Source: Ascidiella aspersa (Eukaryota). Taken from it: a stretch of DNA of 64,000 nt. The translations under genes were made by a program, and so were the position numbers. The notes below the pieces were generated by a model. The model had not been told where the DNA came from, made no database searches, and saw only the letters and a program-made list of their open reading frames with translations. Numbering within the stretch: position 1 is the stretch's first letter; each line of letters opens with the position of its first letter. The stretch lies in assembly GCA_963924565.1 (NCBI GenBank), contig OZ004610.1, forward strand, positions 10,664,001 to 10,728,000, given 5' to 3'. This document shows positions 10,201 through 61,433 of this stretch, in pieces.

Positions 10201-12967
10201 TTTACCTTGAACTTGCTGCAGTTGCTGCTGAGTGTTTTGGTTGGAGTGCTGTTGTTTGTGACGATGTGGAATGTTCAACATCTTTGGATCTACTTGTAGC
10301 ACCGCTTGCAGGTGGATTGTTCACCGGGGGATGGTTGAAAATATTTCCGGAAATTGCCTTACTGAGGTCTTGTGATAGTCGCGCGGCCAGAGCAGGAGGC
10401 ATTGATGCAGCGGTGGTATGGGGACCTCGGTAAGGCTCCCCCGAAGCTTCGCGATCTTGTGGTTGCACACTTTCAGGAACCTGACTTGGCTGGGGTGGTT
10501 TTGTACCATGTGAGCGTGCCATCGGCTGAGGCGGTGGCATCATTCTTGTTGTTGATGATGCATCGGGTGCTGTGTGACCCTCCCTTGGCCCTTTGCCGAT
10601 TAATCCCACCGCCACCATTTCATTCCCTCCAGAGTTTCGCATCTGGAAGCGGCCGACGACAGGCTGATCTCGCATGTTGTAGCCATGCTCAGTGGCAATC
10701 TGGTATGAGTGTCGGTGAGCAATGTGCTTGGCACCGAACTCGGACTCGCGGGATATCTCATCGGATGGTGATTTACGATGACTGCAGATAAAAGATAAAT
10801 CATTAAAAAGCCATTTGTTTATGTAAACAAAAAACAGTTATAACAATACAAATGTAATGTTGTTAAATACTTGTGGGTCAGAATAAGGCATTGTTTGATA
10901 AATGGTGATTTAGTGAAAATATTTTTAGTGAAATAGCTTTGATACATGGTATTACTAAAACTTATTTATAAAAATGAATTTGTCATTCATGTAACAAAAT
11001 GTGAAGCCCATACACATAAATTGGATGACGACTGCCAGGCTCATCTGATTGTGAAGCAAGTCGTTTTTTGTTTGTCACTCGCATCGAATGTGAAGAACCC
11101 TCTGGTTGTCTGAAGCCTTGTTCAGCAGGAGGCACTGAAAACATTTTAGAACATATTACTACCTATCATCATGCACAATTAAAAACATAGCAATAAATCG
11201 CAAACTGTGAAAAACATATGTGTTATCTTGGTTAAAGCAATATATCCCAGAATTACCTGTAACGTCTTGTTTCTTTCCTTTAACTTTATTTCTCCATCTT
11301 GATGAAGCCTGTTTCTTGGAGCTGCCGGACTTTTTCTCCTTCTGGCTTTTATCAGATGATGTGTCGGATGCGTTTGATGACACTGAAGCCAAGCGCTCTG
11401 GAATGGGACTTGGTGCCTTGTATTGCAGACTTGCAACACCTAAACAGATAACTGGCATTATGCGTTTTAGCTTAAACTGAATTGAATATACATAGAGTGT
11501 ATGAGATCCTGCAAAAACAAAAGATGTAAAACTGCAGATTAATCTGTAACAATTTATTTAAAAATAAACACACTGTTTTCAGTTTCAAATATGTAAGCCA
11601 TACAGAGTGAACTGCCTTAAGGTAAACTTGATTGGTTTTACCGGAGTTTCCATTTGTTTCTTGCAGGACACCCTTTTTCATGAGATCCTCTTTGGTGCTG
11701 CGGACAGATATTTTTCGTTCCAAAGCTACAATAAACAACACAAATCACTTTTAAGGCATTTATGTTAAGTTTATACTTAGAAAAACACTCCAATACAGAA
11801 TTGCACAGTAAGCTCTTTAGAATAAAAATAACAGCAATGCTTGTTGTACTTTGTAAAACATGTTCAAAACCTTGTAAAACTTCATTTATATATATGCCAT
11901 GGCAAATAGTACTTTTATATCAGCTAAAGTATCTGGCAGACATGAATTTGCATGGTAAATATCATAACACATATATCCATGTAACAAAACATTTAGGAGC
12001 ATATAATGCAGAAGAGATTTGTCAGTAATGATTTAACCTGTTGCTGTTCTTGTGAATTGTTCACTTTTCTTCTTTTTCTTCCACTTCCAAGGTTGAAATA
12101 TCTTTCTCCAGTTGCTCTGTGCTTTATCTTTCCTATACTTAGGGACATCTTCTGTGCCAATCTCACTGGACGCTTCTACATTATCTAGAACACCATTTTT
12201 GTTTTGATAACGAATGAGAAATTTTTGAATCAACAAAATACAACACAGGTATAACCACATATCAAAAACATAAAACGTGATATAAAAACAGGCCCTCGTT
12301 GAATATTGGCATCAAGTTGGCCTTGAGCAACCTCGTAGCACATTTTCTCTAAGGTCAGCAAGTTATACAATGGAATGTTACTTTTGCAAATTATCGCATT
12401 TAAGGAAATTGCAAAATCCCTTTATTGGCATTACACGTTAGTCGCTCGCCCAATACCCCTTTTTCAACAAAGGTTGTTGCAGACTGCAAAGTAATTAGTC
12501 GGTTACCTGTAAAAAAAAACTGTGACGCCACACTACAGGGAGAGCTATATGTCTTTTTCAAAACTTGACACTCATGTATGTACAATTAGGCGCAACCTTA
12601 CATGGTAAAACATTAAATTTACATATATATCAGTTCCAATCACCAATAAAAACGGCAAAACTGGATATGAATCCAGCTTAGATTCGTATCTGAGGATCTG
12701 ATATTGTATTTTAAACAAACCTAAACACAACATAAATTTGCAGATAAAAAAACACATGTAGTGTTTGTATATTTTTTGTTTGTTTGTTTTGAAGATCAAT
12801 TCAAAAATGTACTTCTTACACTGAATTAATCAGTTACTTCCTTCGATCAGCAAAGTTTACAGTTTACTTATAAGTTAAATAAATAATGTGTAAGTACCTA
12901 GTTCTGGGTCATTGTTTTCTTCATTATCAACAGTAGAGGTAGTTGGCTTCCTTGGAAGGCTTGACAT
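1224..12967 (-). CDS. PHACTR: Phosphatase and actin regulator (RPEL-repeat, PP1-binding protein), ~742 aa, 15 coding exons
   Basis: Phase-consistent GT-AG exons on the minus strand: 12898-12967, 12038-12184, 11642-11725, 11257-11439, 11014-11134, 10206-10781, 10062-10149, 9416-9505, 9019-9133, 8550-8646, 8019-8161, 5508-5670, 4273-4366, 2772-2936, 1224-1316. Motifs: N-terminal [19 protein letters not shown]; RPEL1 [20 protein letters not shown]; three C-terminal RPELs ([51 protein letters not shown]); family C-terminus [47 protein letters not shown]. The middle low-complexity exons are less certain. Confidence 0.93.
1397..1687. mobile_element. hAT (Charlie/Buster-like) MITE in the last PHACTR intron
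   Basis: Ends CAGTGATTCTCA...TGAGAACCACTG; internal CGGCACCC motifs; body resembles 35021-35297; TSD decayed (ctgtagaa/ctgtccca). Confidence 0.65.
5167..5422. repeat. Local direct duplication of ~107 bp (5167-5273 and 5312-5422)
   Basis: Both copies run from TTCAATTT(C/T)GCAACGAA(A/T)TACGATT to TTAATACAAATTTATAAATTTGATGCC. Confidence 0.8.
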
Positions 12968-13139
12968 TGTAATAGGTCAGTATATTCTAAGCTTAAATCG
13001 CTCACATGTTTACAAATTTAAGCACTGGCAAATATAATTATAACATGTGTGTATATGTATATGTAGTTCTGTTCTGAAAAAATTATATACGATTAAATTT
13101 CACCAAATATTTCTTGTCAAAATAAGGTAGGGCTGCAAT

Positions 13140-13224
13140 GGAAGCTGTGATCTAAAATCTTACCACATTTTCACAACTCGTTTCGTTCCTGTAAAAAAAG
13201 GTGATAGGTTTCTAGACCAGCACC
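13140..13224. mobile_element. Right end of the GGYGCTGGTCTAGAATCCTAC-TIR MITE family, upstream of the PHACTR start
   Basis: ATAGGTTTCTAGACCAGCACC at 13204-13224 is the reverse complement of the TIR at 49091; the subterminal sequence matches 49300-49358. Confidence 0.6.
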
Positions 13225-14322
13225 CTGCAATGTGTTTTCAAAGAAACAACAAACTACCATTTTACCTATTTTGACAGTATATATAGGATAGTATGGAGCT
13301 ACCAAGATAAATACACACTTAACAGGTGCATTCACAAAACACTAGACATATTTCTCAACTTGATTGGAAATGTCACTATTATTGGTTTGTATAGGCCTCG
13401 AGTACTGAGTACTGACTAATGAAAACTAAGAAAATATTAAAGATACGAACAATATTTGGAAATTTAAAAACAATATATATTTTGGATGTTTCAACAATCC
13501 TAGTTAAATTTTATTAGGTGGTAAAATATGAACGTATAACAAGGACATTTATTTATTTTTATATACAAAAACGAAAAAGGCTACACTTTATGCAGAACCT
13601 ATATAATCAACAAAACTCTTACGCCTTTTAGAGCAAATTTATGGTAACCCGATCTTAAAGAAACTCTGGTAACCTGCCTTCATATATGGATGGAAAAATG
13701 GTTTATTATTATACAAAACGCATAAAATCTTTACAAAATATGCATATTTATTAAAACCCGCATTATGCTACTCCAACCTGTTTAATAACAAAAAAACATT
13801 ATTGCGTCACAATACGATTTTAGGAGGAACAATAATATTTCTAAACATATGTTTGCAGCATATTTTATTAACTTTCTCTTGAAACCTTTAAGGTAAGTTG
13901 ATTTTCTTTAGTGCTATTGAAATTAACGAATACTTTTGCCGTGGCCCAATGTTCGATTGCTTAACTAATGTTGTGTGAAACGTTTTATTATCGACGGACT
14001 TTTTTTTACGTGTTGGCTAAATTGTAATTTATTTATTTTAAAGACTGTACGTTTCTAAGAACAGTATTTAAAGTATGGGCTGCAATATTTCGACATTTTA
14101 TGCTAGTTTTGCGTTTTATGATCCAAAATAGACGTTCAAATCATTTCTTATCATTTATCACTATTATAGTGTTTTGTGCTACTTTTGCGACGTATTACGT
14201 CTTCTTTATAGGCTTTGTCCAATAAGGATGTCAACATTTAGGCAATAACATAGTTTTACTCTTATTTTTTGTCTTTGTGTTTACCAATCGGCTAAAAGTG
14301 GGTAAAATTTTTTAATTTCTAC

Positions 14323-14784
14323 ATGGTTTTAGAAACGCCCAGGATTGACGCCTTCCAATTGTCAAAAAAAGTTACAATGGGAAGAGTGAAAAAGCGTACT
14401 TCGGCTTGTCAGAGCGTCAGCTCCAAAGATTCATCGTCTTCATCGGAATCGTCTTCCGGACCATCAACGAGGCGACGATCATCAGGTTCGAGCGATCCGG
14501 AAGATTTCCGGCATCACCTCTTTAAGGTTCTGCAGGAAATATACGACGACACGGGAATCACCAAGCAAGCCATGGACTCGATGAACGTTTTGGTCAACTA
14601 TCTCTTCGTATCACTTGTCACTACCGCGTCGGCGATTATGAGAAAGTCGAACAGAACTACGATGACAGCCAACGACATCCAAAGCGCCGTTCGCCAGGTC
14701 CTCCCTGGGGAGTTACAGAAGCACGCAGTTTCCGAAGGCACAAAGGCGGTTGCCAAATTTAAAAGTTATAGCAACTTAGACTAG
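14323..14784 (+). CDS. H2B: Divergent, solitary histone H2B variant with a Ser/Arg-rich N-tail (start may be the second ATG, 14377)
   Basis: Histone fold FKVLQEIYDDTGITKQAMDSMN...DIQSAVRQVLPGELQKHAVSEGTKAVAKF aligns without gaps to canonical H2B. Intronless; AATAAA at 14786-14791; no histone stem-loop seen. Confidence 0.9.
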   Translation: MVLETPRIDAFQLSKKVTMGRVKKRTSACQSVSSKDSSSSSESSSGPSTRRRSSGSSDPEDFRHHLFKVLQEIYDDTGITKQAMDSMNVLVNYLFVSLVTTASAIMRKSNRTTMTANDIQSAVRQVLPGELQKHAVSEGTKAVAKFKSYSNLD

Positions 14785-15296
14785 AAATAAAACCAAAAAA
14801 AAACTAAACGCTGTGGTAGTTTCGAACGGAAGCTTTATTGAGACAGGGTAAATTTTGGAAAATAGTATGAAATTTTGGCCAACTTTTGTGAGCTGACTAA
14901 GGAATAGATATAAATAGAAAGGTATTTCATTGTTAGAACTTTTCAGGGATTTAAAAATGGTTTCAATTATAATTTTCTTAAACATTTTTAAAAATATATA
15001 TTTAAAATAATTTATAAATAGGTCCACGACGCTTGGTTGATTATTACGAATTCGCGCTAACCCATGCATAAAAAAGGCATTTTTATCATTTTCTTTGACA
15101 ACCGTATCAAGGGTAACGTTTGGAACGATGTTTGACTACTTAGTTGTATTTGGAAAAATTTAATAGGAACTGCAGTCGAAGGTTTGAAATAAATCAAATA
15201 ACGCAATATGTAAGGTGATATTTATTTGCTGTCTTAACCATTAAAATTTTGCACAAGAATGTGTTTTGTTAATGTGATTTTATCATTTTTTACTCG

Positions 15297-16938: not shown

Positions 16939-18492
16939 ATGTCTACTCTAAACATGGTTCCTGAAACAACAGAGGCACTTCAAGCCCTTGAAAAGCTTTT
17001 GCTCTGTATGTCATGTCAAAAAACAATGAAATGTCCAGTTGTCCTAATAGGCTGTGATCATGTGTTTTGCATGCAATGTTTGAAAGACAAAGGTAAATGT
17101 CCTTTGTGTGGTGTGCCGGTTTGGGTGCAAGACCTTAGAGTCAATAAGCAATTGGAAGACATTTCAAATGTGTGCGCACAAATTAGAACTAGCCTTTCAA
17201 CTGTTGATAAAGACAACAAATTACATGGCACACTAGATAAATCAGTTTGTGACATATCTGTTTCTAAAGGTAACAATGAAAAACAGGCTGCACCACTTGC
17301 AACTCCAGAAATGAACACTCCAGCTAAAGCCTTTCGCACACCTGGAACATTAGTTACACCAAAATGTCGAAGCACCCCAAGACATATGTGTTTAAAAACA
17401 CCGAAGAGTGGTCAAAAAAATAAGAAAGGGGAAACTGAGCTTCACATCGCAGCAATTCGGGGAAATATCGAGAAACTAACTGCTTTGTTGGAAGACGGTG
17501 TGGATGTAAATTTGAAAGACAATGCAGGCTGGTCAGCGTTACATGAGGCTAGCATTCATGGCCATGTTGAAATAGTCAAGAAACTAATTGATCATGGAGC
17601 ACTGGTGGACATACCTGGCCATCGTAATGATACGCCATTAATGGATGCAGTGGCAAATAACAAATTTGAAACTGTGAGAATATTGTTAAAATGTGGTGCG
17701 GACGTTAATTTGAGAAATGCTGTAGGAAAAACTGCAAAGTTTTTTGCGAAAAATGAAGAAATGTTAAAGTTGCTATCCAAAAAAACACTTGCTGTGACTG
17801 CAAGTTCACCACCTCAAGTAGTTGTCCCCTCTCCACTTCAAGCAAAGTTAAGCTGCTCAAGTTCCGTTGCATCAGATAAGGTTATAGCTTTTGGCCAGTT
17901 GTTTCCAATTAACCTACAAAATGATTGCGCGATTGGAGTCACTCATTTTGTGACATGCGTTGATCAAAACAGAAAAGCAAAACGCACAATAAAGTACTTG
18001 CAGGCCATGGCAAGTGGGGCTTGGATTTTGACTGAAGCTTGGTTGGATGCTTGTGTGAAACAAGTAAAGTGGGTGGAAGAACTGGACTATCAGGTTAAAA
18101 GTTGTGTGGATGATGGTGCAATAGGAGGACCTTTACGCTCTACTACTAGCCGGCTTAGGCAGGTACCACGACTGTTTGACGGCTGTCACTTTTTTTTGCA
18201 CGGCGCCTTCTCTCAACCATACCCTACCAAACAGCAACTGACCGAACTGATCAAAGCTGCAGATGGAAAGATTCTAAGCAGGTCTCCAAAGCCGGACAGC
18301 GACTGTGTTCAGATTTGTTCAAAGGTGCCTTACCATGCCAAGCCCGACTCTCCCGCTTACTACTTCACATATTACACAGTTTTCGACCCTTCAAAACATC
18401 CTTCTCCTCGTATGGTTAAACAAGGCAAAGTAAACACAGTGCCGGTGACCTGGCTACTGGATTGCCTGACCCAGTTTATCATCATGTCATAA
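16939..18492 (+). CDS. BARD1: BRCA1-associated RING domain protein 1 (RING, ankyrin repeats, tandem BRCT), intronless, 517 aa
   Basis: C3HC4 RING CMSC...CDHVFCMQC...CPLCGVPVWVQD; ankyrin repeats KGETELHIAA, AGWSALHEAS, RNDTPLMDAV; BRCT1 RTIKYLQAMASGAWILTEAWL; BRCT2 PRLFDGCHFFL...LSRSPKPDSDCVQ...WLLDCL. Confidence 0.96.
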   Translation: MSTLNMVPETTEALQALEKLLLCMSCQKTMKCPVVLIGCDHVFCMQCLKDKGKCPLCGVPVWVQDLRVNKQLEDISNVCAQIRTSLSTVDKDNKLHGTLDKSVCDISVSKGNNEKQAAPLATPEMNTPAKAFRTPGTLVTPKCRSTPRHMCLKTPKSGQKNKKGETELHIAAIRGNIEKLTALLEDGVDVNLKDNAGWSALHEASIHGHVEIVKKLIDHGALVDIPGHRNDTPLMDAVANNKFETVRILLKCGADVNLRNAVGKTAKFFAKNEEMLKLLSKKTLAVTASSPPQVVVPSPLQAKLSCSSSVASDKVIAFGQLFPINLQNDCAIGVTHFVTCVDQNRKAKRTIKYLQAMASGAWILTEAWLDACVKQVKWVEELDYQVKSCVDDGAIGGPLRSTTSRLRQVPRLFDGCHFFLHGAFSQPYPTKQQLTELIKAADGKILSRSPKPDSDCVQICSKVPYHAKPDSPAYYFTYYTVFDPSKHPSPRMVKQGKVNTVPVTWLLDCLTQFIIMS

Positions 18493-19353: not shown

Positions 19354-19579
19354 ATGCTGGAAGAAGATTTGGAGATTGCTGTCAAGGTTGTAGTTGTGGG
19401 AAATGGTGCTGTGGGAAAGTCTAGCATGATACAGCGTTACTGCAAGGGAATTTTCACCAAGGAGTACAAAAAGACGATTGGAGTGGATTTCTTAGAAAAG
19501 CAGCTCACGTATGTAGCTTTGCTGATTGGTTTATTGTCATGAAAATCTGATTTTATACCTTTAGGCTTGAATAGTTTAT

Positions 19580-19620
<41 letters not shown>

Positions 19621-22600
19621 CTGTCTTTCTATAGGTTTAACATGATTAGTTTGTGTTGGGTTCTGTTGATAAGATACATGGTTCAATCAGATCACTTTAC
19701 ACTTATCTTAATGTATTTTAATATTTGATGCTGGTGTTTATATATATATCTACCAATTATTTATTGGCAGCGCTCCCAAGCTTTTTTTTATACATACTAA
19801 AATATATACAAAATATACTTGAATGATATACAAAATATTTCTTACACCCACAATTTAAAAGGATATATTCTAATGCCTTCTTAAAAACTATATTACCGTC
19901 AGTCTTATCTACTTATAATTGTTCCAATTTCCTTATTAGTAAAACAAGTGTGTGTTGTGCAACTAATCATCCTAAGTGTCATGTTTTGGTAATTTATAAG
20001 GCTGAACGACAGCGAGGTCCGTCTGATGTTGTGGGATACTGCTGGACAGGAAGAATTTGACTCCATAACCAAAGCTTACTACAGAGGTAAATCTATAGGA
20101 AACATATTTACAATTTAGTATTTTTTGTAAGTATAATCGTGTTAATGTTCAAGAAAGCTTCCAATTTCTCTAAATAGAAATGTGCGAAACTTTTCATAAT
20201 TTATTAATGTTTTTCATGTTTTGTTTATGACTCGTGTGCATAATGAATGATGGTTAGATGGCAGTGAGAATATAAACAAGTTGACCAAACTTTTTGCTTT
20301 AGTTGTTTTTACAAATTAAACTAGTATACTTTATTTATTTATTTTATTTAATGTTACCTAGTTTAACAATTTATAAAATGTTGCAGGACAACTGCTGTTT
20401 AAAACAAAACTGCTGTTTAACTATGCAACTAAAATAAAAAACATACATTGGGTTCATTCAGTTTTAAAAGTCGGATAGGTGTTATTCATGAAGGAGCGAT
20501 TGTATTGCAAAACTATATAGAAAATTGCCTATTAGCTAAGGTCTTGATTGTCTTGAAAACCCTTCTATATGTTTTATTAAAACACAAGGAGCCCAGGCTT
20601 GTGTTTTGGCATTTTCCACAACTGACCGGGATTCATTTGAGGCGGTTGAAAAATGGAAAAGCAAAATTGAGGAGGAAGTTGGGCCCAACATCCCTCTTGT
20701 TCTTGTACAGAACAAAATTGATCTACTTGAGAGTGCTGTGGTTGAACAGTGAGTATAATAATTTCTTTAAACACAACCAGTGAATTTATTATTTAAGCAA
20801 CCACCTCTTTTATGTCTTCTTTCTATGTTTTAGTGATTTTTTGGGCGGAGAGGTTGTGTTGGTACTTGGAACAGTTGGTAGTATAAACTTTTAAAACAAT
20901 ACACCAAAGTAATTGACATTGGTTGTCAAAAAAGTGTGTTTGTAAATCCAATTTTCAAATTGAAAATAATGCTTTCACATTAAAGCTCATGCCCAAGCAA
21001 TTTAAGAATGCAAAAAATAACATATTTTAAGCATTTTTTATTTGATTTTGTTTTCTTTCAGGGAAGAAGCAGAAAATCTTGCGAAACGATTAAAGTTGAG
21101 ATTCTATAGAACGTCTGTTAAAGAAGACTTAAATGTTGATGAAGGTAAATGCAGAACATGCAAGGTGTAATGGAAACAGAATATCACTGACTATAACTTA
21201 ATAATTCATCACACTAAATTTTGTTTGATTTTTTATCATAATATCTAACTTTTCTGTAAGCGTGATGTAATGATAGTTACAAACGATCCAGGCTAGATCA
21301 GAAAAGTTTGTATATCTATCAAGTTTTCTTCAAGGATCTTAGATCTCTGGAAATATGACATTCCCTGGAAATTCCAGTGTTTTTTTAAGGTGTTTTGGGG
21401 GACCGAAACGGTCCTCCAAATTTCTCCAGCGGTTTCCCAAATTTTGGACTTGCAACTTTTACGTATTTAAATGAAACACTTGCGGTCTCATAAAACTACT
21501 TAGCGGTCACCCAAACCAAACCTTAAAAAAAACCTTCTGTGAATTTTAGGATTTTTTGCAAAACATATGTTTTTGAAGCATATATGTGGAATTAGTGGAT
21601 TACTGTCATTGACATTTAGAATATGTACTCTGGCTACAGACGCAAATTGTGTTAAACCTCAGCTGTTTAGTTGTAATGCATTTTATCAGGTAAAACGTTA
21701 CAAATTATATCCAAAACGTTTTATTTTATTTTCCACATTGTACACTAGGTGACTTGAATTCCATTAAAAAAACTTTGTAGTGAATTTGGTTAAGGTAAAA
21801 TTTACACCCGATAAGGGCTGTTAGTCTTATCACACAACCATCTAGGACTTACTGCCCTGTAGCAGTTTAGGTAACATTATCAAACTACATAAGTTAAAGA
21901 TCTCTTTTAAAATAAACCTTTCTTTAATTAGTATTTCAGTACTTGACCGAAAAGCACATGCAAAAAAGCAAACAAGAGGCGGAGTCTGAACCCGATGCAC
22001 CAGCACCTATTCGGCAAATCGGTAAAACTAACATTTTTATTCGTTGTTTTTTAAAGTATAAAGTAGATTTTGAACTAGTTTTATTTTGTACACCTTAAAA
22101 CTGTGAGTAAGCTATAGGTTGACAACACATTTCAAGAACGATTTATGCCGATTGAAAGTAAGCTGTCATAACGAGGTTTTTTTTGAACATTTTGTTAAAA
22201 TAAGTGTCTGTCTAGTTTTATCTGGTCTAGTTTTTTCCTACAAGGTGTGAAAACGCGCTACTAAATGTAAAACATGTCAGGTTTTAACACCCATTCGTTG
22301 TCTGAAAACAAAAACTTGGGTTTAATTATTTAAAGCCTTCTTGGTGGTACAAGTGTAGGCTTGGGCGAAACCTCTCTTGGCCATTTTTTAAATAGATCAG
22401 GGCTAAACCAATTTTTTATATGCAGCAAATATTTATTTTTTGTTTCTTCAATGGCACTCTTCATTCTTAAAGAATCATATGTTACTTTGTTACATGCAGT
22501 ATTCTAGATCAGAGGTCACCAAACTTTTTTTATAAAGTGACGTTTTTTTTTCATAAAGTGACGGATAACTATCAGCATTGTCGATTGCAGGCCGGATGTT

Positions 22601-23122
22601 AAATTTTGTATCAACATTATTTTATTTTAATATTATTAACTAAAGAAAAACAAAATAATATTTATCAATACAAATATAGTGAGCTTTTTGATGAAAGGGT
22701 TTTAGTTTGAAATTTATAAGTTAAGGTTAGCTTTGCATCTTACAAACATCCCTGTTTATAAACATATAAATAATACTACTTTTGTTTTGGGAAAAATACT
22801 GCGTGCCCGATATCAAACTGGCGGGCCAGATTTGGTCCGCTGGCCATAGTTTGGTGAACCCTTCTCTAATAAACAAAAAGCCTTTTAAGAACATGTCTTC
22901 TCGTGTAGTTAATCTACTTGTTTTACTGGAATTTAAATGTTTTAAAACTAACATTTTCTTTCAGGTCTATTCAACACAGCTGGGCAAAGTGCAAATTCAT
23001 CCAAGTCCAACAACAAGAATGGAAACTCAACCCCACCTGGTGGCGAAACAATCAACATACAACCAAACAAGTCTCGGGCATCTAAAAACAAGAATATTTT
23101 TTCTAAATGTGCATTGATTTAG
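19354..23122 (+). CDS. RAB23: Ras-related protein Rab-23, 243 aa, 6 exons
   Basis: Exons 19354-19508, 20001-20086, 20589-20748, 21062-21144, 21932-22021, 22965-23122. Sequence [81 protein letters not shown]; C-terminal CAAX box CALI*. Confidence 0.96.
19584..19615. repeat. (TA)16 microsatellite in RAB23 intron 1
   Basis: Uninterrupted TA run read directly. Confidence 0.95.
22510..22864. mobile_element. hAT Charlie/Buster-like MITE in RAB23 intron 5
   Basis: CAGAGGTCACCAAACT ... AGTTTGGTGAACCC; subterminal GCGGGCCAGATTTGGTCCGC; TCTA-containing flanks. Confidence 0.65.
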
Positions 23123-47377: not shown

Positions 47378-48940
47378 CTAGAAAAAGTGTCTAATAAACA
47401 TGGATGCAACTGACACCCAACGCGGAACAGCATATCTTGGTTGAAGCAATGTCTCTCTGGTGACAGGTTGTGAGTACTTTCCAATTTTACATATTTCATT
47501 GTTAAGTTGAAGCTTTAGTTTTTTATTTCTTGTCACAACGGTCAACTGTGCTTCAAGATCGCGCTTTACAGAGCGAGACCCAAAATTTGATGATCCTACA
47601 ATAGTCAAGGTGGGAAGTGAGTTGTGTTTGTCGAACAGCCACAAACCTTTAGCATGATAAGTCCAGTTAGGACGTGAGTACTCATGCAGTTTAATTAATG
47701 GTTCTTTGCCACTTTGTGACACCTGCTCATGAAACTTTCTTGTAAGGTAATTGTACATCCTTGGAATGTATCCCATAAGACCAGGTGCATTGAGAAAGCC
47801 ATTGGCACTCTGAGAGGCTATATAAATATCAAACTTTGCTGGACTGTCTAATATAATGTTGGCATATTCCTTTGTGATATTAAAATATCCGGAAGTAAAG
47901 CAGATATGAGACTCTGGATTAGCATTCTGCAATATCGCTTTTGTGATCATTTCATCTTGGTTGATACCAGCAAATCCAAGTTGAACCGATGGGAAAATCA
48001 TTGTATCTTTATCTCCTGAAACAGCATGTGAACTGTGGGCATGCTCATTCAAGGTTGCTGTGCAAACATTGTTTGAAGTTTTATTTGCCAGACTACTCAA
48101 ATTCAGAAGACTCCAAAGACAACCTACCGATGTCTTTAAAAGTCCAAGAAAGTAATTGGTATTTGCATATGCAGTTCTTCGTGATAAATCTGGATAAATA
48201 ATCGGTTGCAATTGGCTATTAACATAAGTCACAAACAGGTCAAAATCACCATTATAAGGGTGGACTGGACATTGTTTTGAAAATACTGTTGTACCGTCAT
48301 GTTGTAAGTGATAGGAAAATGACCGGACGGCTTTTACCAGGTTTTGAAAATAGTCTGCAAGTGGCTTGCAGTTGTTAAACTGAATATACCTGTCCTGCCT
48401 CTGAGTGAAGTAATCATTGCTTAAATTTGCACCACTAATTATTAGGCTATCATCAAAGACAAACACTTTCATGTGTGCTAGACCAATGATTTCATTCCAT
48501 TTGGCTGGCAACCAGTTCTTATAGAATCCGCGCAGTAGCGGGGAGTGATACAAAGACACCTGCAGTGTAATGTCCGACGGGTTCTCAGGATCGCAAAAGT
48601 CGCTCATTAGACCAGAAAACATGGTTTTGGAGTTTACGCTTTGTCCTCTTGAACCTCTAGCATAATCTATTAATATATCAACATTCATAATTTGGTGGTT
48701 CTTTTTCATGGTTAGCATTGCCTTGTGGAGGCAAGTAACAAGTTGCTTTTCCAGATTCCCTGTCCCCAGATAAAGAGAAGACAACACAATTCTATGTTGA
48801 GCTGTTTTTATACCATCAATCAACGCTTCATAGAAATCTCCTGGGCTATCAAATACAGTAACATCATCTCCATTTATCGAAAAACTGGGAGCATGATTGC
48901 ATAACCACTTGAACTTCACCAAAGGGTCTTCAATGCACAT
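47378..48940 (-). CDS. PGS1: CDP-diacylglycerol--glycerol-3-phosphate 3-phosphatidyltransferase, mitochondrial (PLD superfamily), one long exon, 520 aa
   Basis: RIVLSSLYLGTG, DYARGSRG, LYHSPLLRG, NEIIGLAHMKVFVFDDSLIISGANLSNDYFTQRQDRY, TSGYFN, WTYHAKGLW, GSSNFGSRSVKRDLEAQ. Confidence 0.96.
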   Translation of the reverse strand: MCIEDPLVKFKWLCNHAPSFSINGDDVTVFDSPGDFYEALIDGIKTAQHRIVLSSLYLGTGNLEKQLVTCLHKAMLTMKKNHQIMNVDILIDYARGSRGQSVNSKTMFSGLMSDFCDPENPSDITLQVSLYHSPLLRGFYKNWLPAKWNEIIGLAHMKVFVFDDSLIISGANLSNDYFTQRQDRYIQFNNCKPLADYFQNLVKAVRSFSYHLQHDGTTVFSKQCPVHPYNGDFDLFVTYVNSQLQPIIYPDLSRRTAYANTNYFLGLLKTSVGCLWSLLNLSSLANKTSNNVCTATLNEHAHSSHAVSGDKDTMIFPSVQLGFAGINQDEMITKAILQNANPESHICFTSGYFNITKEYANIILDSPAKFDIYIASQSANGFLNAPGLMGYIPRMYNYLTRKFHEQVSQSGKEPLIKLHEYSRPNWTYHAKGLWLFDKHNSLPTLTIVGSSNFGSRSVKRDLEAQLTVVTRNKKLKLQLNNEICKIGKYSQPVTRETLLQPRYAVPRWVSVASMFIRHFF

Positions 48941-54200: not shown

Positions 54201-54324
54201 TCCACCCACAAAACGTGGTTTAAATAAATCTAGGCACTGGAACGTTAACTTGCCTTAATGGACTAAAATACATTTTAAAGCAATCAACAAAATATTACGT
54301 TTTTTTTAGCAATAGATTTGTAAC

Positions 54325-56664
54325 ATGTTGCAACTTACTTTATGTGTTTGTGCGTTGCTTGTGTTGTGCGTTGAACCAAACGCAAGATGCTCCCAAGACC
54401 AGTTTCAATGTAGCAGGCCAGGCGTGAAGTGCATTAACCAAACTCAAGTTTGCAACGGGCAGTTGGACTGTTGGTTGGGCGAAGACGAGGCAAACTGCAC
54501 AACTTGCAAATCAGGAGCGAAGAAGTGCAACGATGGGAGCAAGTGTGTTCCGTGGTGCAATGGATATAACGATTGTAACGATTGGAGCGATGAGACGAAC
54601 TGTACGACTTGCAAACTAGGAGCGAAGAAGTGCAACGTTGGGAAGCAGTGTATTCGCTCAAGTTTGTGGTGCGATGGGCAGTTGCATTGTGACGATTTGA
54701 GCGATAAGACAAACTGTACAACTTGCAAATCAGGAGCGAAGAAATGCAAGGATGGGAGGCAATGTGTCGACGCAAGTGGGTGGTGTGATGGTCAGTTGCA
54801 TTGTGACGATTTAAGTGATGAGACGAATTGCACAACTTGCAACCCAGGAGAGGAGAAGTGCAATGATGCAAGGCAGTGTATTCGCGCAAGTTTGTTGTGC
54901 GATGGGAAGTTACATTGTGGCGATTTGAGTGATGAGACGAACTGTACAACTTGCAATGAAGGAGCGAAAATGTGCGATGGTGGACGGCAGTGTGTTGACT
55001 CAAGTTGGTGGTGCGATGGGCAGTTACATTGTGACGATTGGAGCGATGAGACGAACTGTACAACTTGCAATGAAGGAGCGAAGAAGTGTGATGATGGGCG
55101 GCTTTGTATTCGGGCAAGCAATTGGTGCGATGGGCGGCAAAATTGTCACGATTGGAGCGATGAGGCGGACTGTGCAACTTGCAAACCAGGAGCGAAGAAG
55201 TGCAATGGTGGAAGGCAGTGTGTTGACGCAAGTGAGTGGTGCGATGGGCGGAAAAATTGTAACGATAAGAGTGATGAGACGAACTGCACAACTTGCAAAC
55301 CAGGAGCAAAGAAGTGTATTGATGGAAGACAGTGTGTTGACGCAAGTTGGTGGTGCGATGGGCAGACAGATTGTCACGATTGGAGCGATGAGGCGAATTG
55401 CACAACTTGCAATGGAAGAGCGAAAATGTGCGATGATGGGAAGTTATGTATGCACTTAAGCAAGTGGTGCGATGGAATAATAGGTTGTGACGATGCCAGC
55501 GACGAGAATAGCTGTAAAACTTGCAATGGAGGAGCAAAGATGTGCAATGATGGGAAGTTGTGTTTGCCCGCAAGCGGGTGGTGCGATGGACCGGAAGAAT
55601 GTTACGATAAGAGTGATGAGACGAACTGTACAACTTGCAATGAAAGAGCAAAGATGTGCAATGATGGGAAGTTTTGTTGGCCCGCAAGCAGGTGGTGCGA
55701 CGGACGGTATGGTTGTCACGATTGGAGCGATGAGACAAACTGCACAACTTGCAAACCAGGAGCAAAGAAATGCAAGGATGGGAGGCAGTGTATTCTCGTA
55801 AGTTCGTGGTGCGATGGGTATAACCATTGTACCGATTTGAGCGATGAGAGGTTCTGCCCAATAACTTGCGAACCAGGAACGAAGATGTGCAATACAGAGA
55901 GCAAGTGTATTGGCACAAGCCGGTGGTGCGATGGACGGTATGATTGTGACGATTGGAGCGATGAGTTGAACTGCACAACTTGCAAACCAGGAGCGAAGAT
56001 GTGCGGTGAAGGGAGGCATTGTATTTCCGTACGTTGGTGGTGCGATGGGGAAAACGATTGTAGCGATTGGAGCGACGAGGCAAACTGTCCACTGTGCAAG
56101 AAAGGAACGAAGATGTGCAACGATGGGAGCAATTGTGTTTTGTGGTGTAATGGGTATAACGATTGTCAGGATTGGAGCGATGAGACGAACTGCACAACTT
56201 GTTATTTAGGAGCGAAAATGTGCAATGATGGAAGCAAGTGCATTCGCGAAAGCAAGTGGTGCGATGGGCAGGAGGATTGTTACGATTGGAGCGATGAGAC
56301 GAACTGTACAACTTGCAAACCAGAAGTGAAGATGTGCGATGATGGGAGGCAATGTGTTGACGTAAGTTGGTGGTGCGATGGGCGGAAAAATTGTTACGAT
56401 TGGAGCGATGAGACGAACTGCACAACTTGCAAACCAGGAGCAAAAAAGTGCATTGATGGTAGGCAGTGTGTTGACGCAAGTTGGTGGTGCGATGGGCGGA
56501 AGGATTGTTACGATTGGAGCGATGAGACGAACTGCACAACTTGCAAACCAGGAGCAAAAAAGTGCATTGATGGTAGGCAGTGTGTTGACGCAAGTTGGTG
56601 GTGCGATGGGCGGAAGGATTGTCATGATTGGAGCGATGAGGAGACTGTTTGCCTCAACAAATGA
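54325..56664 (+). CDS. Secreted protein made of 20 tandem LDL-receptor class A (complement-type) modules, intronless, 779 aa
   Basis: Signal peptide MLQLTLCVCALLVLCVEPNA, then 20 six-Cys units ending C-x-D-x-S-D-E-x-x-C (mostly 38 aa, 114 nt); stop right after the last module; no TM, EGF, YWTD or protease domain. Confidence 0.88.
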   Translation: MLQLTLCVCALLVLCVEPNARCSQDQFQCSRPGVKCINQTQVCNGQLDCWLGEDEANCTTCKSGAKKCNDGSKCVPWCNGYNDCNDWSDETNCTTCKLGAKKCNVGKQCIRSSLWCDGQLHCDDLSDKTNCTTCKSGAKKCKDGRQCVDASGWCDGQLHCDDLSDETNCTTCNPGEEKCNDARQCIRASLLCDGKLHCGDLSDETNCTTCNEGAKMCDGGRQCVDSSWWCDGQLHCDDWSDETNCTTCNEGAKKCDDGRLCIRASNWCDGRQNCHDWSDEADCATCKPGAKKCNGGRQCVDASEWCDGRKNCNDKSDETNCTTCKPGAKKCIDGRQCVDASWWCDGQTDCHDWSDEANCTTCNGRAKMCDDGKLCMHLSKWCDGIIGCDDASDENSCKTCNGGAKMCNDGKLCLPASGWCDGPEECYDKSDETNCTTCNERAKMCNDGKFCWPASRWCDGRYGCHDWSDETNCTTCKPGAKKCKDGRQCILVSSWCDGYNHCTDLSDERFCPITCEPGTKMCNTESKCIGTSRWCDGRYDCDDWSDELNCTTCKPGAKMCGEGRHCISVRWWCDGENDCSDWSDEANCPLCKKGTKMCNDGSNCVLWCNGYNDCQDWSDETNCTTCYLGAKMCNDGSKCIRESKWCDGQEDCYDWSDETNCTTCKPEVKMCDDGRQCVDVSWWCDGRKNCYDWSDETNCTTCKPGAKKCIDGRQCVDASWWCDGRKDCYDWSDETNCTTCKPGAKKCIDGRQCVDASWWCDGRKDCHDWSDEETVCLNK

Positions 56665-60527: not shown

Positions 60528-61433
60528 CTAAACATGCTCTCCATTCCATAGCTCATCTTTTATGGCATGTTTTGGATCACAAGTAAAGGAAATTGTTAGT
60601 GCATAACGAACCCCTTCGGTCACCTTTTTAACATGGTGTGGATTTTCGGACCCAGAGGTAAAGAATGAAATCCTGCCAAGTTTAGGTTCCACAGTGATGT
60701 TTCTGTCATCAAAAACAAACTGACCACCCTGAAAATCCTGGCCATAATTAGAAAGATATAAGAGTGAAGTGTAGTCAAACGAGCCATATTGAATTTTGTC
60801 TATGTGACTGTGCCAGTACTCGTCATGTTGAGTGCGTGCTTCCTTAGATGTGATTCGTGAAAAGAATGTTGGCTTTGTTAGAAAAAGATATTCATGGTTA
60901 ATACCAAAATGATGTGCGACTAAATGGCGAACCCTGTCTTTTATATTTTTAAAAACTTGCAAGCCATGTTCTGGAAACAAGTCTTTTAATTGGGAATTGC
61001 TTAGCACTTTGTAAATGTTAATAAATTTTTCCCCTTTAGACAAAGCACCAGAGTGAAGGTCAAGGATGGATGCACCACCATGTGACCCACCATACTGCAT
61101 TACACTTTTTACAATGTCAAGCAGTTCCTCAACCTCTTTTTCTGTTACAAGACCATCTTTCACACCACGGCCACACAATTTTGTTGGGGTACATTTATCG
61201 AATTTCGGATAATTTTTGTAGTCACTTGAGCAAGTTACATTTTCTGATTTAGAAGTGTAAGTCTCACTCTGCAATGCAAAAATGAGATTGTGCGAATTTT
61301 CAGATCTTATCCATAAAACAGCTACAACCACAATACCACAAGCCACTGTCAAAAGCTTTTTTGATTGACTTGTTTTACTCTGCTGAGCTTGAGGTTCTTT
61401 TTTTGATTTGCTTTGTCCTTTGTTTTTCACCAT
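60528..61433 (-). CDS. OGFOD3: 2-oxoglutarate and iron-dependent oxygenase domain-containing protein 3, intronless, 301 aa
   Basis: Basic N-terminus and TM helix LLTVACGIVVVAVLWI; GGASILDLHSGALSKG; LTKPTFFSRI; HDEYWHSHIDK (HxD); FTSGSENPHHV; RYALTISFTCDP. Confidence 0.95.
   Translation of the reverse strand: MVKNKGQSKSKKEPQAQQSKTSQSKKLLTVACGIVVVAVLWIRSENSHNLIFALQSETYTSKSENVTCSSDYKNYPKFDKCTPTKLCGRGVKDGLVTEKEVEELLDIVKSVMQYGGSHGGASILDLHSGALSKGEKFINIYKVLSNSQLKDLFPEHGLQVFKNIKDRVRHLVAHHFGINHEYLFLTKPTFFSRITSKEARTQHDEYWHSHIDKIQYGSFDYTSLLYLSNYGQDFQGGQFVFDDRNITVEPKLGRISFFTSGSENPHHVKKVTEGVRYALTISFTCDPKHAIKDELWNGEHV

Follow-up and report, generated by a model that had tools for sequence, protein, structure and literature searches.

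A conserved ascidian histone H2B variant with a relaxed H4-facing surface

An open reading frame in a 64,000-nucleotide stretch of the Ascidiella aspersa genome (contig OZ004610.1, positions 10,664,001 to 10,728,000; hereafter the window) raises the question of whether an H2B whose H4-facing residues have been replaced is a working histone or a copy in decay, and of what such a histone might do in chromatin. From the letters alone, the original prediction described an orphan H2B variant that has lost the H2B–H4 interface and kept the nucleosome-surface residues. The frame (14323–14784, plus strand, 153 amino acids) is intact, and the open reading frame listing and domain search identify a real H2B-variant gene. 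The protein contains a Pfam Histone domain (49.7 bits above cut-off), and its top PDB sequence matches and Foldseek matches are H2B. Genome searches, whose counts of histone genes are lower bounds, found a single intronless copy on contig C4 and no second paralogue, three matches on contig C2 being broken canonical fragments. The quartet cluster on contig C8 holds six copies of canonical H2B, which has a stem-loop and the usual residues on its H4 face. The variant therefore lies outside the histone cluster, as predicted, with no histone gene nearby. The prediction of AATAAA rather than a stem-loop was also borne out: the Rfam Histone3 stem-loop was found neither at the variant locus (L001) nor at an orthologue locus (L008), whereas the canonical histone locus (L002) has three. 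A dispersed gene, the lack of a stem-loop, and a poly(A) signal are features of replication-independent histone variants, and the variant has all three; it differs from replication-coupled canonical H2B in being unclustered, in lacking the 3' stem-loop, and in its 47% core identity to the canonical H2B of the same animal. The features of the locus are collected in Table 1.

Table 1. Features at and around the H2B variant gene (positions in the window)
Feature	Position	Strand	Evidence
Pair of CCAAT boxes, at 14219 and at 14284, preceding the RNA 5' end	14219..14288	+	Sequence; putative promoter role
In-frame upstream extension of 18 codons, with the start originally predicted; likely 5' UTR	14323..14376	+	Ends of 35 molecules at 14327; bin 14164-14299 at depth 0.38; ATG in a weaker context
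Variant coding sequence, likely 135 aa from M19, intronless	14377..14784	+	RNA 5' ends at 14327; start of relatives; no splice joint inside
N-terminal tail, 41 aa, 17 Ser and 8 Lys/Arg, predicted disordered	14377..14499	+	Sequence; prediction
Histone fold and alphaC (human 35-124)	14500..14769	+	Identity: human H2B 48%, own canonical H2B 47%, relatives 61-76%
Stretch with relaxed H4-facing positions (human 61, 64, 65, 68, 71, 80, 83, 92, 96, 100)	14578..14697	+	Alignment; entropy; roles from papers, in part presumed
Conserved alphaC region (human 102-120) with E105, K108, H109, E113, K116, K120	14701..14757	+	Alignment
AATAAA signal directly after the stop	14786..14791	+	Sequence; then genomic A9 at 14795-14803; no histone stem-loop; read depth gone in bin 14844-14970
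Rab gene	19354..23119	+	In L024/L008, counterparts of its last two exons lie inverted 2-3 kb downstream of the orthologue

An RPEL-repeat (Phactr-like) gene adjoins the variant head to head, and an intronless BARD1 and a Rab gene, the latter taken to be Rab23-like, lie downstream. Several other features of the window and the genome were observed. BARD1 (RING, ankyrin, and BRCT) is a single, intronless-looking open reading frame at 16939–18492 (+). Two more single, intronless-looking frames encode a PLD-domain protein, presumably PGS1-like, at 47378–48940 (−) and a 2OG-Fe(II) oxygenase at 60528–61430 (−). At 54316–56664 (+), roughly 20 repeats of the LDL-receptor class A type make up a 782-codon open frame, and the other strand is open there for 739 codons. 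High-copy short repeats, with a summed contig depth in thousands, occupy 12360–12600 and 13170–13230, inside and upstream of the Phactr-like gene. The broken H2B fragments on C2 (L107–L109, G000:C2, 37.30–37.94 Mb) lie in a repeated setting and are possibly a captured gene fragment; the text beside one of them resembles what we take to be a Helitron helicase. In the histone cluster near 18.256 Mb of G000:C8 (L057/L082), one H3 has a premature stop and the neighboring H4 matches only residues 62–102, and at 18.469 Mb (L064) the neighbor of a slightly divergent H2A is a truncated H3. These damaged H3/H4 copies reflect either assembly error or decay.

Transcription was analyzed using one raw RNA run with the same species label, a single bulk sample of which about 6% of the reads were aligned to 10900–14970. 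The strandedness of the library was fixed by the spliced joints of the neighboring minus-strand gene. The variant is strongly transcribed in this run: it is read on the plus strand at depths of 260, 461, 467, and 70 over four bins, against 4–19 on the exons of the neighbor, and it accounts for roughly 1,130 reads (a rough figure of ~145 per million records). No splice joint was found within the gene in the run. The reads end after AATAAA; no poly(A) tail is present among the loose ends displayed (214 further ends apart), and the genomic run of nine A confounds this comparison. At the 5' side, 35 molecules stop at 14327, just past the first ATG, with almost no coverage further upstream. Because of these ends, and because the first residue of most full-length relatives aligns with M19, the start codon is likely M19. 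The predicted frame is thus real, and its start probably lies 18 codons further downstream, although a minor longer form from the first ATG may also be made, as random priming may leave an end several bases short of the true one. Two heterozygous sites in the RNA (169/322 and 139/256 reads) are both synonymous, with a chance probability of about 0.06. No conserved promoter block was found between the variant and orthologue loci, the two loci compared. In the DNA runs X1 and X2, a coverage hole lies over the variant gene; the hole carries no evidential weight.

The variant was aligned without gaps to human H2B from PDB 8GRQ, in human numbering with an assumed anchor at K34, which reproduces the residue numbers used in the cited papers. 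All eight predicted substitutions (D68Y, E71V, R72S, E76T, R79A, Y83K, R92N, and L100Q) are present, the acidic-patch residues E105 and E113 and the ubiquitination lysine K120 are retained, and the N-terminal tail is indeed rich in serine (17 in the 41 residues after M19). R72 and R79 carry little weight because they are variable among canonical H2Bs too (52% and 64% conserved among 182 canonical-like sequences). The emphasis that the original prediction placed on the loss of E76 was misplaced. E76T, like A74V, K46Q, and H39, is private to the Ascidiella aspersa variant, the four changes falling at sites where at least 13 of 16 relatives agree, and E76 itself is kept in 15 of the 16. R99 is kept in 16 of the 17 family sequences. 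In the tail, neutral or acidic residues take the place of the basic stretch that immediately precedes the fold, and the net charge of the protein is +6 as opposed to +17 in the canonical H2B of the same animal; these differences may weaken DNA binding more than we assume below. The position of S36 (14500–14505), a phosphorylation site in mammals, is occupied by Asp in the variant and in 10 of the 15 relatives covering it and by Cys in the other five, and this Asp may mimic phosphorylation.

A protein search gave 13 matches at 114–164 bits, above the floor of ordinary H2Bs (≤94 bits), and further relatives were obtained from cluster look-ups and a profile search. Sixteen relatives were used, leaving out the near-duplicates P0120 and P0122 and the later-found P0382; three of them are named ascidians (Clavelina lepadiformis, Ciona intestinalis, and Styela clava). 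In a tree based on 89 columns, whose bootstrap is not fully settled, a 100/100 branch separates the variant and the 16 relatives from 39 canonical rows. Within the clade, a group with Ciona, Clavelina, and the variant (97/98) is separate from the Styela-containing group. This grouping agrees with the ascidian phylogeny and speaks for vertical descent. When 1.84 billion representatives were scanned in full with HMMER, the family appeared in three clusters, and nothing else that is single-domain scored above ~134 bits; the profile searches added one member, P0148, and returned no named non-ascidian member. Of the 11 signature residues, which were drawn from the family itself, none of the other 353 proteins fetched has more than 3. 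In the metagenome scan, two of 42 loci are the variant, and both are the same gene. The orthologue in L024/L008 is followed, 2–3 kb downstream, by the last two exons of the Rab gene in the orientation opposite to that in Ascidiella aspersa. Adjacency to BARD1 and Phactr is not seen in the 16-kb L024, and therefore no BARD1 link is claimed. Members of one subgroup (P0011, P0012, and P0013) have a short or missing basic tail and a net charge of +3 to −2, and their starts may be incomplete. The term "orphan" is thus apt for the position outside the cluster only, as the gene has ascidian orthologues and is not private to its lineage: it represents a real, old, expressed H2B variant class shared among ascidians. 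The named database entries are labeled "H2B-like" (two) or "uncharacterized" (one). No earlier description of the family was found in the open literature; a Ciona histone gene survey may exist in subscription journals, which the search did not cover. Moosmann 2011 (PMC3156773) lists extra unspecified H2B isoforms in both Ciona species, with testis H2B given as "nd".

Could the gene nevertheless be a decaying retrocopy of canonical H2B? It is intronless, an A-rich stretch follows the stop, its four private changes fall at otherwise agreed sites, and its end branch in the tree is 0.31. The original prediction named missing transcripts, a dN/dS near 1, and disablements as the marks of such decay, and proposed a search for relatives. 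Transcription is strong and on the coding strand, the frame is intact with no disablement found, the polymorphism is synonymous only, and the search yielded the 16 relatives and the common Rab neighbor. Compared with the L024 orthologue over 90 codons, dN is 0.197 and pS is 0.92 (saturated), and 56 of the 93 differences are at third positions; dN is far below dS, and the ratio is not near 1. Because the relatives form one clade, one of them shares the Rab neighbor, and a dN of 0.20 accompanies a saturated dS, decay of a retrocopy is refuted for the family, which is under purifying selection, and we give it next to no credence as an account of this gene.

The faces of the protein were compared using the 182 canonical-like H2Bs, chosen at ≥70% identity, a choice that favors conservation. 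At the 61 positions conserved to ≥85% in these sequences, the family keeps 27, has fixed a new residue at six (Y37F, Q47E, H49Y, S55T, S91A, and E93D), and is relaxed at 13 (P50, K57, I61, S64, F65, D68, E71, L80, Y83, N84, R92, T96, and L100). Ten of the 13 relaxed positions face H4, among them 61, 64, 65, 92, and 96, which we presume to be H4-facing. For the others, the cited passages describe contacts of D68 with H4 K91, T96, and Y98 and of E76 with H4 Y72 and R92 (bioRxiv 2025.09.17.676776), and H4 contacts of E71 (PMC10657182), of L80 and Y83 (bioRxiv 2024.12.31.630874), and of Y83, R99, and L100 (PMC11844553). D68, the aromatic residue at 83, and the hydrophobic residue at 100, which bind H4 at the four-helix bundle and the H4 Y98 pocket, are jointly lost in 17/17 family sequences and in 0/182 canonical-like H2Bs, of which 22 have a non-aromatic residue at 83 and one lacks D68. 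In 12 less-redundant members, the entropy of the H4-facing positions is 1.7 bits (0.25 in canonical H2Bs), compared with 0.31 for the outer face, 0.45 for the H2A core, and 0.72 for DNA contacts. Because these residue sets were in part presumed and were fixed after the table had been inspected, the H2A interface was re-derived from a predicted dimer. In this model-derived split, 40 strict sites touching H2A have 0.41 bits, whereas 10 non-touching sites in 68–100 have 1.53 (p = 0.0002) and 11 strict non-touching sites elsewhere have 0.85 (p = 0.03). For the six paper-named sites alone, p is 0.04–0.07 by identity kept and 0.0006–0.004 by entropy and BLOSUM score. The predicted loss of the H2B–H4 interface with retention of the surface residues therefore holds family-wide, except that E76 and R99 are kept in most relatives, so that not every H4 contact has been lost. 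The family also keeps M59 and an aromatic residue at 42, presumably chaperone contacts. With Q47E fixed, A107 replaced by Gln or Glu, and K120 kept, the surface available to readers would be normal or more acidic.

The monomer model has four helices (pLDDT 72, pTM 0.49) and matches H2B at a TM of ~0.5 only, because the alphaC helix is modeled unpacked without H2A. The dimer model of the variant with its own H2A scored 0.92, against 0.02 for the best control, with a contact agreement between runs of ≥90% and a partner pLDDT of ≥89. The mark set for this score is reached by 51/78 solved and 2/108 mismatched pairs (39/65 and 2/126 for eukaryotes); as H2A–H2B is a textbook pair, the score may pass by likeness and not by binding. 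The histone fold and pairing with H2A are accordingly given as predictions of the models. The H2A genes found in the genome are canonical, one H2A.X-like, and one H2A.Z. The H2A.X-like gene (L098, G000:C1:39553146–39554931, minus strand) contains introns and ends in SQDY; the H2A.X C terminus is usually SQEY. All seven H4 candidates are canonical, and no H4 variant was found in the genome. Because only canonical H4 was found, a co-evolved H4 partner does not explain the change, and the variation of the H4-facing sites, with no settled new residues, makes a new partner for that face less likely.

Here, we propose that variant dimers are held loosely in nucleosomes and are readily exchanged or evicted, possibly in germ cells, a reading to which we give an even chance. 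Having lost most of its H4-gripping residues, the variant likely makes loose, easily dismantled chromatin. It would pair with H2A and bind DNA through the conserved L1 and L2 loops; DNA and the H2A docking region would provide most of the dimer's tether to H3–H4, with residual contacts of E76 and R99 adding to it. The outer face, intact and possibly more acidic (Q47E, A107 to Gln/Glu, and K120), could still be read; deposition would be replication-independent, and use would be in the germline. Studies of human mutants offer precedents: D68 and E76 mutants, even the D68N/E76K double mutant, enter chromatin and exchange faster (bioRxiv 2025.09.17.676776), and E71 mutants enter chromatin yet are more mobile (PMC10657182). 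The germline step is possible by analogy, because the divergent H2Bs of mammals and Oikopleura are germline-enriched. In Table 2 of a Botryllus study, a contig labeled "H2B type 1-L" is 289-fold up in fertile colonies. In another Botryllus table, this label is on 11 of 16 H2B-named genes, none of which is numbered beside Rab23, and a word search of the Ciona germline and Botryllus atlas papers gave no mention of H2B; the contig serves as a lead only.

Retention of E76 and R99 means that some H4 contact remains, which weighs against loose nucleosomes of this kind. On the other hand, both patches that contact H4 (at the H4 Y98 pocket and the four-helix bundle) vary freely without settling on new residues, and positions 83 and 100 are polar or charged; such variation would fit the absence of H4 contact better than a tuned weak one. 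The variant kept across the main ascidian lineages might then act with H2A on DNA alone, in sub-nucleosomal particles without the H3–H4 tetramer that display the acidic patch and K120, for instance during germline or sperm chromatin remodeling. The conserved DNA-contact loops and outer face and the lack of a compensating H4 variant among the seven candidates agree with this, and mouse spermatids contain H2A.L2/TH2B sub-nucleosomal particles. Nevertheless, E76 and R99 are kept, the H2A–H4 β-sheet adds to core compaction and also holds dimers in the core (bioRxiv 2024.12.31.630874), and the D68N/E76K double mutants still enter chromatin; we regard packaging without a tetramer as unlikely, though worth serious attention.

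A role outside chromatin, like that of mammalian H2B.L in the sperm subacrosomal layer, would suit the low net charge and Ser-rich tail, and H2B.L likewise differs at putative H4-interacting residues. However, H2B.L also alters L2 and modification sites (PMC8857922), whereas L1/L2, K120, and the helix of the acidic patch are all retained in the ascidian family. Chromatin use is thus the simplest explanation, and a non-chromatin role appears improbable. The conserved H2A core and outer face, M59 and the aromatic residue at 42, and the high RNA level could instead reflect a soluble H2A-variant dimer in eggs or somatic cells, either kept as a pool, stored or bound to chaperones, or diverting acidic-patch readers as a decoy. 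This would leave the conservation of the DNA-contact loops unexplained, and we hold it to be quite improbable. Loosely held nucleosomal dimers remain our preferred reading.

Known animal H2B variants are few, and most are young and mammalian. The ascidian class appears to occur on both sides of the deep ascidian split, some 400 million years old, with a pattern in which the H4 face is released and every other face is kept. As Ciona is a tractable chordate, it can be asked there whether chromatin uses H2A–H2B dimers barely or never docked on H3–H4. The SPKK-type sperm H2Bs of sea urchins and Hydractinia have a long basic tail with SPKK/SPRR repeats, neither of which was found in the Ser-rich tail of the variant. 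The closest likenesses are to H2B.L, H2B.N, and the H2B–H4 oncohistones, yet in each case defining features are missing or orthology is not shown. Vertebrate H2B.K is also a non-cluster H2B variant, but it has a near-canonical fold with the H4 contacts largely kept (PMC8857922); a fish sequence named H2B type 2-K1 (P0172) keeps Y83 and L100 and has no family signature. H2B.L (subH2B) shares with the variant an identity to canonical H2B below 50% and the changed H4-interacting residues (Raman 2022, PMC8857922), but there is no sign of orthology, as the named members of the clade are all ascidians in a tree built without H2B.L sequences. H2B.N also has a highly divergent fold, including its H4-facing residues, and an unusual or non-nucleosomal role has been proposed; its new H4-facing residues are conserved and its alphaC is usually lost (PMC8857922), whereas in the ascidian family the H4 face varies freely and alphaC is complete and best kept. 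The tunicate Oikopleura has intronless, divergent H2B.4 and H2B.3 (40% and 65%), the former testis-enriched, but all Oikopleura H2B genes are described as having the stem-loop that the variant lacks (Moosmann 2011, PMC3156773). The oncohistone mutations H2B D68N, E71K, and E76K hit the same H2B–H4 contacts, destabilize octamers, and speed dimer exchange (bioRxiv 2025.09.17.676776, PMC10657182, and PMC11844553). They are single somatic mutations, whereas the ascidian family has lost several of these sites together under selection and mostly retains E76; the variant may thus be seen as a natural counterpart of the H2B–H4 oncohistone mutations, preserved by selection.
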